From assembly GCA_005222965.1 (NCBI GenBank), contig NJBG01000001.1:332323-396322 (forward strand): DNA of 64,000 nt, given 5' to 3'. Source of the DNA: Candidatus Woesearchaeota archaeon B3_Woes. GTDB taxonomy: Archaea; Nanobdellota; Nanobdellia; Woesearchaeales; B3-WOES. Below are positions 22,019 through 24,523 of this stretch, in pieces. The notes beneath the pieces were generated by a model, which saw only the letters and a program-made list of their open reading frames with translations, made no database searches and was not told the origin of the DNA. Numbering within the stretch: the stretch's first letter is position 1; each line of letters starts with the position of its first letter. A program made the translations under genes and the position numbers.

Positions 22019-23275
22019 TTATAAATCCTTAATTATTAAAACAGCGATGTTTGTTTCTTCTGGTTTTACTTTAGAGTCCATTGCAACAACAAATTTAACT
22101 CCTGCTGTCTCTGCAGTGGTTGCAAGATTTTTATCAACAACACCATCAAACAAAATTGCATAAATGCCGGAACTTAAACTTTTAACAGTTGATCCAAGCT
22201 CCATTATAGGTACTTTGCCTAAAATCTCTAGTTTCTGATCTAAAATATAAGCTCCTCTTGTTCCAATTAAATCCTCAAGCATCTTTGAAAATGTTTTTTT
22301 CTCAGAATCTGTTGGAACTGCTTTTTTAACACCAAAGTTTCTTTGTGCAGGTCTTTGTTGATATGTTCTCTGTGGTGGTCTTTGAGCTTGTCTATTAAAG
22401 AAAGATCTTTTCTCAGGAGCTGCTCCTCCGTTTGCAGATTCTCTTTTTAACTCCATACTCACCTGTTCTGCTGTCATTTTTGATCTTAAAGCCTTATGGA
22501 TTTCTTTTTGTGTTAATTCTTCAAGTTCTTTTCCAGCAGGAGCCCTAGTTGCAAAATCAATTTCTGCACAACCAAATAAACTTTGGAGTATAAGGTTTCC
22601 TCCTCTGTCTCCATCAACAAAAGCGGTAACTGTCTTTTTCTTAGATAACTCAATTATTGTTTCTGGTACTGAGGTTCCATTTGTTGCTATTGCATTCTTA
22701 AAACCATATTTAAGTAAATTAACAACATCTGCACGTCCCTCTACAATAATTATCTCATCTGACTCTTCTACCGCAGGTCCAGCAGATAATCTATCCTTTC
22801 CATATTCTACTATTTCCATTACTCGAACAGAAGATATTACTTCATTTGCAATTTCCTGAGAATCAGGTAATACGTTGTCCTTAAGCTCTTTTAGTAATTC
22901 TTTAGCTCTCTCAATTACAAAAGTTCTTTTACTCACTCTGACATCTTCTATATTCTCGATTTTGATAACAGAATCACATGGACCTATTCTTTTTATGATC
23001 TCTAATGCTGCTCCTATAATACTTGTCTCTGCTTTGTCTAAACTTGATGGAATCACTATCTTTCCATTTGATTTTCCGTTTCTTGTTTCTATGTTTACTT
23101 CTATTCTTCCTATTCTACCTGATCTTTGTAGTTCTCTTAGTTCTAGGTCAGATCCTAATAAACCTTCTGTTTGGCCAAAAATTGCTCCAATTACATCTGG
23201 TTTATCAACAACTCCTTCTGCATTAATATTTGCATGAACTATGTATTTTGAACTTGTTTGTGCTATTTTTCCCAT
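22019..23275 (-). CDS. dnaG: Archaeal DnaG (primase-like, exosome-associated)
   Basis: GAIFGQTEGLLG, GRIGRI, VEGRADV, DGDRGG. Confidence 0.96.
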   Translation of the reverse strand: MGKIAQTSSKYIVHANINAEGVVDKPDVIGAIFGQTEGLLGSDLELRELQRSGRIGRIEVNIETRNGKSNGKIVIPSSLDKAETSIIGAALEIIKRIGPCDSVIKIENIEDVRVSKRTFVIERAKELLKELKDNVLPDSQEIANEVISSVRVMEIVEYGKDRLSAGPAVEESDEIIIVEGRADVVNLLKYGFKNAIATNGTSVPETIIELSKKKTVTAFVDGDRGGNLILQSLFGCAEIDFATRAPAGKELEELTQKEIHKALRSKMTAEQVSMELKRESANGGAAPEKRSFFNRQAQRPPQRTYQQRPAQRNFGVKKAVPTDSEKKTFSKMLEDLIGTRGAYILDQKLEILGKVPIMELGSTVKSLSSGIYAILFDGVVDKNLATTAETAGVKFVVAMDSKVKPEETNIAVLIIKDL

Positions 23276-23576
23276 TTTCTTTGAACCTCCAATGAAAAGA
23301 TTTGAAAATTTCTACGAAATTTTCATTTTTCCTCCATACAAAACAAGCAGAATAAGTACTAAAAATTACTAACATAACCCTTTTACAATGTAAAATGATG
23401 TTGTGATGTCAGTGATTTTAATACCCCCTATAGAACAAATAAATGTGCAAATAAAGCTTATTTTAAGCTCTTTAGGCATAATTCGCCTTTTTTTAAGTCA
23501 AATACGTGATTTAAATGATAAATGACATTTATTTACTCTATTTCTGCTTCTTTTCTTATTTTTAATGTAAATATGA

Positions 23577-23729
23577 ATTTGTTGCCCGTAACACTAACTC
23601 CCAAGCTCATTGCTTGCGTTTAGCGACAGCTCCATTGAGTACTCTCGTGACGGGCTGTTATACACAAGAGTGTCTTTAATTCACCGCCAAAACACGTGTT
23701 TCAGCTCATTAAAGGACCGATTTGTGTAA
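23577..23729 (-). ncRNA. Candidate two-hairpin box H/ACA guide RNA
   Basis: Two hairpins, each followed by ACA (plus-strand tgt at 23656-58 and 23580-82), with K-turn-like GA/AG pairs and internal pockets; TTTAAATA about 25 nt upstream. Confidence 0.6.
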
Positions 23730-23818
23730 AGAAATCATAATGCTTTGCGCTATTTAAAGCTTGTGATTTGAAATTAGAATAACCAAGATTTAAAAACCCA
23801 ATAGTGTTTCATATCTAT

Positions 23819-24523
23819 ATGTCAAAAATAACTAAGGAAAAATTTAAGACAAAACATAATGTATTTGATGATTTTACTAATAGAACCATCTTCAAATTAA
23901 TAAGTGAAGGTCATTTTGATGGTTTAGAAGGCCCCATTAGCATAGGCAAAGAATCTAATGTGTTTTTAGCTAAAAAGAGGAACAAAAATATAGTTGTTAA
24001 GGTATATAGGGTTAATTCTTGCGATTTCAATAAGATGTTTGATTATATCAAATCAGATCCAAGATACCTTGATCTAAAAGGCAGAAAAAGAAATATCATA
24101 TTTCATTGGGTTCAAAGAGAATATAGGAACTTGTTAAAAGCAAGAAAAGCTAATATAAGAGTTCCAACACCCATTGTATTCAAAAATCATATTCTTGTTA
24201 TGGAATTTATTGGACAAAACAACAAAATAGCACCAATGCTAAAAGATAAAACACCAGAAAATCCTAAAAATTTTTTTAATGAAATCATAAAAAACATAAG
24301 AAAATTATACAAAGCAGGATTAGTTCATGCTGATTTATCTAGTTTTAATATCTTAAATTTAAATGATAAACCTGTTTTTATTGACTTTTCACAATGCACA
24401 TCATTACAAGACCAAAGAGCAGAAGAGTATATTATCAGAGACATAAAAAATCTTTGTAATTTTTTTAGAAAACAAGGTTTAAAATTAGATGAAAAAAAGA
24501 TCCTTCAAAAAATAAAAGCATAA
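23819..24523 (+). CDS. rio1: RIO1-family kinase
   Basis: IGKESNVF, VKVYR, EYRNL, LVHADLSSFNIL, IDFSQ. Confidence 0.93.
   Translation: MSKITKEKFKTKHNVFDDFTNRTIFKLISEGHFDGLEGPISIGKESNVFLAKKRNKNIVVKVYRVNSCDFNKMFDYIKSDPRYLDLKGRKRNIIFHWVQREYRNLLKARKANIRVPTPIVFKNHILVMEFIGQNNKIAPMLKDKTPENPKNFFNEIIKNIRKLYKAGLVHADLSSFNILNLNDKPVFIDFSQCTSLQDQRAEEYIIRDIKNLCNFFRKQGLKLDEKKILQKIKA

Follow-up and report, generated by a model that had tools for sequence, protein, structure and literature searches.

A two-hairpin RNA of Woesearchaeales archaea interpreted as a box H/ACA guide with predicted targets in helix 69 and the A-loop of 23S rRNA

The genome of Candidatus Woesearchaeota archaeon B3_Woes is 1.02 Mb in size (archaeal, 30% G+C, four contigs, 96% complete), and the window analysed here is a stretch of 64,000 nucleotides of it (G000:C1:332323-396322). 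On the minus strand, an intergenic gap of the window carries a candidate RNA gene spanning approximately 23736-23577. We interpret its predicted product, about 155-160 nt long, as an independently transcribed box H/ACA guide small RNA (sRNA), in which hairpin 2 would be directed to helix 69 (H69) and hairpin 1 to the A-loop of 23S rRNA, and we assign this interpretation a probability of about 0.82. It is built on the structures of the two hairpins, their conservation, guide-target complementarity accompanied by co-variation, and the presence of three core proteins of the H/ACA ribonucleoprotein (RNP) in the genome.

From these observations, we infer that the RNA is transcribed, assembles into an RNP, and gives rise to pseudouridines in its targets. 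In the mechanism we propose, each hairpin would bind one Cbf5-Nop10 set through its lower stem, ACA box and pocket, and would bind L7Ae through its kink-turn. The two strands of each pocket would pair with 23S rRNA so as to flank a uridine, and this uridine would be isomerised to pseudouridine by Cbf5. Specifically, hairpin 2 would be an ancient, lineage-wide module that addresses U1915 and U1917 of the H69 loop (Escherichia coli numbering) in an atypical mode, with a UNUN stretch left unpaired and the ACA box 17 and 19 nt away, while hairpin 1 would be an addition present in part of the window's order (Woesearchaeales) that addresses U2555 (or U2554) of the A-loop in the typical mode.

A first-pass annotation, made from the letters of the window, had described an unannotated two-hairpin, H/ACA-like RNA in this region, and each structural element that it listed is found at its place on the minus strand, to which all coordinates of the RNA given below refer. 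Its assignment of the RNA to the H/ACA class agrees with the anatomy, with the covariation, with a separate promoter for the RNA, and with the finding of Cbf5, Nop10 and L7Ae in the genome. Hairpin 1, the 5′ H/ACA motif (23661..23728, delineated by the minimum free energy (MFE) fold and covariation), is composed of a lower stem (UACACAA, 23728-23722, paired with UUGUGUA, 23667-23661), a pocket formed by the 5′ strand AUCGGUC (23721-23715) and the 3′ strand ACACUC (23673-23668), both also recovered in a target scan, an upper stem (CUUUAAU, 23714-23708, paired with AUUAAAG, 23680-23674), and an apical stem-loop (23705-23686) seen in the fold. Its kink-turn (23681..23707) includes GA at 23707-23706, a GC..GC C-stem, a GGU bulge at 23685-23683, and GA at 23682-23681. 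Hairpin 1 is followed by UA-ACA, with 15 nt between its upper stem and the internal ACA box (23656..23658). Hairpin 2 begins right behind this ACA, which is the sole linker between the two hairpins; there is no ANANNA H box.

Hairpin 2, the 3′ H/ACA motif (23584..23655, delineated by covariation and by the covariance model R1 described below), has the same architecture. Its lower stem (GCCCGU, 23655-23650, paired with ACGGGC, 23589-23584) extends to GCCCGU+CAC (23655-23647) facing GUG, a UU bulge and ACGGGC (23594-23584). The pocket is formed by the 5′ strand GAGAGUA (23640..23646) and the 3′ strand AGUUA (23595..23599, from the target scan), and is followed by an upper stem (23639-23633 paired with 23606-23600) and an apical stem-loop (23630-23612). 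The kink-turn (23607..23632) includes GA at 23632-23631, a GC..GC C-stem, an AAU bulge at 23611-23609, and GA at 23608-23607. The 3′ ACA box (23580..23582) is preceded by A (A-ACA), and the RNA probably ends a few bases past it, at about 23577. The tandem GA/GA, the 3-nt bulge and the GC C-stem of an archaeal kink-turn are thus found in both hairpins, where L7Ae is predicted to bind.

A 166-nt stretch at the locus folds with an MFE of -46.8 kcal/mol (z = -2.64), a value equalled by 2 of 200 shuffles. With a 201-nt query, blastn detected relatives (E ≤ 0.001) in 42 out of 61 genomes, one genome per family of the window's order; the best matches listed are 77-92% identical, and hairpin 2 is the better conserved half. 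From these relatives we extracted 30 hairpin-2 sequences, 29 of which form alignment A1 (the remaining one, L025 from G008, was excluded, as its apical loop carries an insertion of 25 nt), and 15 hairpin-1 sequences, which form alignment A2. Covariation among relatives, which the first-pass annotation had named as a check, backs both folds. For hairpin 2, 90.4% of cells are paired and both sides have changed at 10 of 22 pairs, with slid controls reaching 24.5-42.8% paired; for hairpin 1, the values are 90.2% and 18 of 22 pairs, with slid controls at 34.5-51.1%. The covariation score of either hairpin was reached by 0 of 500 shuffles. The CAC/GUG extension of the hairpin 2 lower stem covaries as well, reading UAC/GUA or UGC/GC within the order and CAU/AUG in other orders. 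The invariant columns of A1 and A2 are the pocket strands and the kink-turn bases, while the stems vary, which is the pattern that would be expected of a guide RNA. In particular, the GA, GC and GA columns of the hairpin 1 kink-turn are conserved in A2, and the kink-turn columns of hairpin 2 are conserved in A1, with AA for GA on the non-bulged strand in some relatives.

To survey the distribution of the RNA, we used two models, R1 for hairpin 2, built from the 29 sequences of the window's order and without Nanoarchaeum equitans, and R2 for hairpin 1, in a phylum sample of 151 genomes comprising the window's order and other orders of the same class. R1 finds exactly one match per genome at E ≤ 0.001 in 141 of the 151 genomes. 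When the threshold was relaxed to E ≤ 10 in five genomes that had given no match (G088, G094, G130, G126 and G069), there was still none. R2 finds matches in 39 of the 151 genomes, all within the window's order, and each of the 39 adjoins an R1 match within 0-1 nt. Some relatives (L014, L022, L032 and N. equitans, at G104:C1:339411-339494) carry a different 5′ hairpin with other pocket sequences ahead of hairpin 2, and others carry hairpin 2 alone, as though the 5′ hairpin were an interchangeable module. When one genome of each prokaryote species was scanned for exact matches to the hairpin-2 core, at least 120 stretches were returned, and among the matches listed, the records are titled mostly Candidatus Woesearchaeota, Nanoarchaeota or Nanoarchaeia. 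Many of the records with the core (including L167, L169 and L180) bear the title 'uncultured Methanosarcinales archaeon', and one is called 'Alphaproteobacteria bacterium'; such titles probably reflect placeholder names or errors of binning.

Given these data, we regard chance folding of AT-rich intergenic DNA as an extremely improbable origin of the hairpins. Such shapes do arise easily: a loose H/ACA descriptor matches more than 1000 sites in the genome, and was therefore rejected as useless. However, chance structures would not be expected to keep 77-92% identity across families, to have both folds backed by covariation, or to yield a single R1 match per genome in 141 of 151 genomes. A strict descriptor matches hairpin 1 and one other site in the genome, compared with 3 sites in the reversed genome; since it misses hairpin 2, it cannot show that the sRNA is the only H/ACA RNA of the genome.

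Candidate targets were sought with the 5′ side of the target pairing with the 3′ pocket strand and the 3′ side of the target pairing with the 5′ pocket strand. Positions in 23S rRNA were assigned by alignment to the annotated E. coli 23S rRNA, with a one-base offset corrected by means of the known UAACUAUAAC of helix 69. The helix 69 of this genome reads GGGGGUAACUAUAACUCUCUU, in which the segment facing pocket 2 is UAACUAUAACUCUC. GUUA of the 3′ pocket strand pairs with UAAC (E. coli U1911-C1914), and GAGAGU of the 5′ pocket strand pairs with ACUCUC (large-subunit rRNA (LSU) 1950-1955, E. coli A1919-C1924), leaving U1915-A-U1917-A unpaired between the two arms. Counted from the ACA box, U1915 is at position 17 and U1917 at position 19, outside the 15 +/- 1 nt rule. 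With 10 Watson-Crick pairs (4+6), H69 is the best site in 16S and 23S rRNA in a search allowing gaps of 2-4 nt; a first target scan missed it because only two unpaired target bases were allowed.

The first-pass annotation had also proposed helix 69 as the target of pocket 2, and this part of its proposal we retain. The H69 variant from which it argued, UAACUC-UG-ACUCUC, is not the one in this genome and occurs in one related family (G088 and G094), and of its GAGUUA arm the pairing part is (A)GUUA with UAAC(U), with UAUA unpaired. The ACA spacing of about 18 nt that it had considered long is in fact 17 and 19 nt, equal to that of SL2, the proven H69 guide of Haloferax.

Pocket 2 and H69 change together. 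Within the window's order, H69 reads ACUCUC at 25 of 25 loci and the guide reads GAGAGU in all 29 sequences, in which the columns of the 5′ pocket strand are invariant; N. equitans likewise has ACUCUC in H69 and GAGAGU in the guide. Outside the order, AUUCUC in H69 is accompanied by a GAGAA guide in 6 genomes (G075, G083, G131, G174, G187 and G101); three more genomes of other orders (G153, G107 and G146) also have GAGAA guides, and their H69 was not recovered. Pocket invariance and co-variation across orders thus support a match of hairpin 2 to H69 that would be weak by statistics alone. In family f71 (L160 in G094 and L161 in G088), the helix-69 loop reads UAACUCUGAC (with UCUG) instead of UAACUAUAAC, and R1 has no match at E ≤ 10; the guide of this family may have been lost or much changed.

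The predicted geometry of hairpin 2 has an experimentally characterised counterpart. In Haloferax volcanii, SL2 of sR-h45 makes both H69 pseudouridines (E. coli 1915 and 1917), as established by genetics and in vitro, and its ACA box is needed (Majumder et al. 2020, RNA 26:396, PMC7075261). In SL2, 'UVUN' is left unpaired and the ACA distances are 17 and 19 nt (PMC7075261). Hairpin 2 has the identical geometry, with UNUN unpaired at 17 and 19 nt; the likeness claimed here is one of geometry. sR-h45 is also a double stem-loop RNA. Its two stem-loops work independently of each other, the 5′ one guiding modification within the peptidyl-transferase region in the typical mode, at 15 nt (PMC7075261). 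Unlike the window RNA, it has a long spacer and an AUAGCU H box, and the base targeted by its 5′ stem-loop is U2605, which lies between helices 90 and 93 and not in the A-loop (PMC7075261). Other RNAs, from euryarchaea, reported to guide the H69 pseudouridine are Pab40.3, Pf7.3, Af4.3 and a motif of Methanocaldococcus jannaschii (PMC4652768, PMC2377435). As predicted for the window RNA, the H69 guides of Pab40, Pf7 and Af4 are the 3′-most hairpins of multi-hairpin sRNAs, although these RNAs have three hairpins (PMC4652768, PMC2377435).

A relative of the window RNA among described RNAs is the H/ACA sRNA of N. equitans (Randau 2012, Genome Biol 13:R63, PMC3491384). It is the one H/ACA sRNA reported for that genome, and it has a box A promoter of its own and ends in a T-stretch terminator (PMC3491384). 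It lies at 339411-339574, between NEQ389 and NEQ392, and was represented by 10,900 reads (PMC3491384). The R1 match in N. equitans (G104:C1:339495-339567, E = 1.2e-11) falls inside this sRNA, in stem 2, and the surrounding stretch agrees by eye with the printed 'H/ACA box sRNA'. As R1 was built without the N. equitans sequence, the match is independent. Like the window RNA, the N. equitans sRNA consists of two kink-turn hairpins joined by ACA only, with no H box and with its own TATA box, and it is encoded once per genome, as is hairpin 2 (PMC3491384). Stem 2 has pocket arms of identical sequence, GAGAGU and GUUA, and these fit the organism's own H69, GUAACUGUAACUCUC, with UGUA unpaired; its ACA spacing is 16 nt, compared with 17 nt in the window. 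Stem 1, by contrast, has other pocket sequences, R2 finds no match in the N. equitans genome, and we do not regard it as a homologue of hairpin 1.

The predicted target of hairpin 1 lies in the A-loop. LSU 2598-2611, GGGUGU-[U]-C-ACCGAU, pairs 6+6 with pocket 1 (12 pairs) and is the only site in 16S and 23S rRNA where an unpaired UN is flanked by 4+4 or more contiguous pairs; its score was reached by 0 of 1000 shuffled pockets. Specifically, AUCGGU of the 5′ strand pairs with ACCGAU (LSU 2606-2611), the 3′ strand of helix 92, and ACACUC of the 3′ strand pairs with GGGUGU (LSU 2598-2603), leaving U2604-C2605 unpaired, equivalent to E. coli U2555-C2556. Within the A-loop of helix 92, which reads U2552-G2553-U2554-U2555-C2556 in E. 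coli numbering, the unpaired U is thus U2555. The targets suggested earlier for pocket 1, GACCGAU and GACCG, occur at LSU 460 and LSU 2447, respectively; both lack a second arm, and we rejected them in favour of the two-armed match in the A-loop.

Guide and rRNA change together at this site as well. In most relatives, the rRNA has ACCCAU for ACCGAU and the guide has AUGGGU for AUCGGU. The third base of the guide strand tracks LSU 2609 in 29 of the 30 genomes for which both sequences are available: it is G in 25 of 26 genomes with C in the rRNA (the exception, G061, has A), C in the single genome with G, that of the window, and A in all three with U (G060, G109 and G047, from two families). The guide of a further genome, G001, has AUAAGU, from which ACUUAU would be predicted for the 3′ strand of its helix 92.

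U2554 and U2555 are 15 and 16 nt from the ACA box, respectively, and both fall within the 15 +/- 1 nt rule. The top base of the 3′ pocket strand, which faces U2554, is A in approximately 27 and C in approximately 10 of 38 relatives (corrected by eye), so that U2554 would be unpaired in many of them. In the Haloferax experiments, the 5′-most U within an unpaired run is the one modified (PMC7075261). The site modified through hairpin 1 may therefore be U2555, or U2554 if the terminal A-U pair is open. The A-loop of yeast contains Psi2923, which we take to be the equivalent of E. coli U2554. This pseudouridine is guided by the 3′ hairpin of snR10 (PMC2879522). snR10, a snoRNA of eukaryotes, has H and ACA boxes but lacks a kink-turn (PMC2879522). 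The site addressed here may be U2555 rather than U2554, and we claim no homology. In Pyrococcus abyssi, guided pseudouridines are reported in helices 89, 90 and 93, and none is reported in helix 92 (PMC2377435).

The genome encodes a full-length Cbf5 that retains the PUA domain (423.6 bits; cut-off, 238), Nop10 (67.5 bits) and L7Ae (91.6 bits), three of the four core proteins that the first-pass annotation had wanted confirmed. Cbf5 is found in 150 of the 151 genomes. The PUA domain of Cbf5 holds the ACA box and the lower stem (PMC3608112). In the three genomes of family f94, the Cbf5 match (G081:C3:133302-134099, G126:C6:46853-47485 and G147:C1:13180-13947) spans model positions 24-26 to 236-282 of 322 and lacks the PUA part, scoring 214-226 bits, under the cut-off. 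None of these three genomes has an R1 match, including G126 when rechecked at E ≤ 10. In four other genomes, the Cbf5 match is split into two halves approximately 1.5 kb apart (G085:C17:18025-20466, G141:C9:60786-63242, and also G084 and G142); the halves share one open frame of 820-891 aa, as if the gene contained an intein or another large insertion.

Several observations weigh against a guide RNA for helix 69 and the A-loop. Firstly, the RNA resembles no H/ACA family in Rfam, the database suggested for checking it: the 64-kb window gave 0 matches at the gathering score, and a search of 23300-24000 (701 bases) at E ≤ 10 gave four matches, all at chance level, all lying off the RNA and all to families other than H/ACA. 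Secondly, the boxes of relatives frequently depart from ANA. The box after hairpin 1 is ACA in 23 of 38 relatives, UCA in 7, CCA in 4, GCA in 2, and AAA and UGA in 1 each; after either hairpin, the sequences of the window's order (38 for hairpin 1, 30 for hairpin 2) often have UCA, CCA or GCA, with only the C and the last A kept, in contrast to ACA, AUA or AAA in other orders. Thirdly, Gar1 is undetected, in this genome and in relatives. The Gar1 Pfam model finds nothing in the genome at E ≤ 10 (other Gar1 models and structure-based searches were not tried), nor does it find anything at E ≤ 0.01 in any of 61 genomes from the phylum sample, N. equitans among them; it does match in 3 archaeal control genomes. 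Gar1 has either been lost or has diverged past the Pfam model. Gar1 is described as making no contact with RNA, and the RNP as retaining activity without it (PMC3608112).

The remaining adverse points concern the targets. For hairpin 1, 2 of 30 guides (in G061 and G190) mismatch an unchanged target, that of G190 at another position than LSU 2609; in G060 and G047, a U.U mismatch at the outer end of the 5′ arm leaves 5 of 6 positions paired; and either U2555 or U2554 may be the base modified. For hairpin 2, the co-variation with H69 amounts to one or two evolutionary events among kin, and the guide G could still form a wobble pair with the changed U of H69. Furthermore, 10 pairs somewhere in the rRNAs were reached by 149 of 1000 shuffled pockets, so that, taken by itself and in a single genome, the H69 match lacks significance. 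This last point, together with the four target bases that must stay unpaired in H69, leaves room for a real H/ACA sRNA in which hairpin 2 guides another site or acts as a non-catalytic chaperone of rRNA folding. The published RNAsnoop prediction for N. equitans points the same way: the targets given there are 16S U234 for stem 1 and 23S U614 or 16S U796 for stem 2, with neither H69 nor the A-loop among them (PMC3491384). Nevertheless, we consider such an alternative unlikely. No other 16S or 23S site in the genome pairs equally well with pocket 2, whose sequence is invariant in 29 sequences of the order and, in other orders, changes in step with H69. Experiments in Haloferax have shown this odd geometry to be productive (PMC7075261), and H69 guides occupy the last hairpin of other archaeal H/ACA RNAs (PMC4652768, PMC2377435). 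We therefore keep helix 69 as the predicted target of hairpin 2.

The candidate sRNA gene sits within a 528-nt intergenic gap, flanked by a Toprim-domain gene (22019-23275, minus strand) and a RIO-type kinase gene (23804-24523, plus strand). No open reading frame of at least 40 aa overlaps 23577-23729 on either strand. Three metatranscriptome runs from the same study gave no reads on 23450-23850, which counts neither for nor against transcription. The upstream TATA box noted previously is present as UUUAAAUA at 23758-23751 (minus strand) and would serve as the promoter of the sRNA gene, with the predicted transcription start at approximately 23736-23729. A TATA-like motif is found 100-114 nt ahead of hairpin 2 in all 14 two-hairpin relatives, and 30-34 nt ahead of hairpin 2 in all 6 relatives with hairpin 2 only. 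The fixed distance of the motif suggests that the sRNA is a separate transcription unit, and its occurrence in the single-hairpin relatives suggests that hairpin 2 is able to stand alone.

The position of the RNA upstream of the Toprim-domain gene (23275-22019), in the same orientation, could also be accommodated by an L7Ae-bound kink-turn RNA whose role is regulatory or structural, for example as the leader or operator of that gene, instead of a guide. This appears very unlikely to us: approximately 300 nt separate the RNA from the start of the Toprim-domain gene, the RNA has a TATA box of its own that is kept in relatives, the N. equitans homologue is a discrete, abundant sRNA flanked by other genes (PMC3491384), and the ACA boxes, the pockets, and the co-variation between guide and rRNA would have no role in an operator. 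Two further short hairpins, GGCGAAUUAUGCC and AAAGAGCUUAAAAUAAGCUUUAU, are located at 23429-23518 on the minus strand, in the interval from the sRNA to the Toprim-domain gene; they gave no more than a chance-level Rfam match.

As a guide sRNA, the window RNA would belong to a known class, with a 3′ hairpin akin to that of the N. equitans sRNA and predicted to work like SL2 of sR-h45. In the literature searched, we found no account of H/ACA RNAs in Woesearchaeota, nor of the breadth of hairpin 2 in the class and its assignment to H69, of an A-loop hairpin with guide-rRNA compensation, of NCA boxes in the window's order as against ANA elsewhere, or of the lack of a detectable Gar1. The RNA gene is missed by Rfam and is found by R1 in 141 of the 151 genomes sampled from a DPANN lineage that is large and uncultured, and the N. 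equitans H/ACA sRNA gains a plausible target, helix 69, that was unnamed in the original prediction. Helix 69 and the A-loop both contact tRNA in the ribosome; that very small genomes retain a guide RNA for them argues that these modifications matter. Beyond this, the co-varying bases of guide and rRNA offer a natural test set for the targeting rules of atypical H/ACA guides, and both the NCA boxes and the lack of a detected Gar1 hint, in a way that can be tested, at a simplified RNP.

These features could be parts of one picture, which we put forward tentatively and with rather less than even confidence: the class that includes N. equitans and Woesearchaeota-type archaea may run a stripped-down form of pseudouridylation, with one H/ACA gene per genome, no recognisable Gar1, an NCA box in one order, an invariant 3′ hairpin kept solely for the two universal pseudouridines of H69 in the atypical UNUN mode, exchangeable 5′ hairpins, and loss of the guide where Cbf5 lacks its PUA domain, as in family f94. 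If so, lineages would plug different 5′ hairpins onto the same 3′ module; the one plugged in here would be a guide for the A-loop, a site so far tied to eukaryotic H/ACA guides such as snR10.

Two further features of the genome were recorded during the analysis. The 16S rRNA gene (G000:C1:986021-987620) comprises 1600 bases, compared with a model of 1478 positions, and may hold an insertion. ARAGORN in its default mode reports only 22 tRNA genes in the genome; many tRNA genes may carry introns or be missed otherwise.

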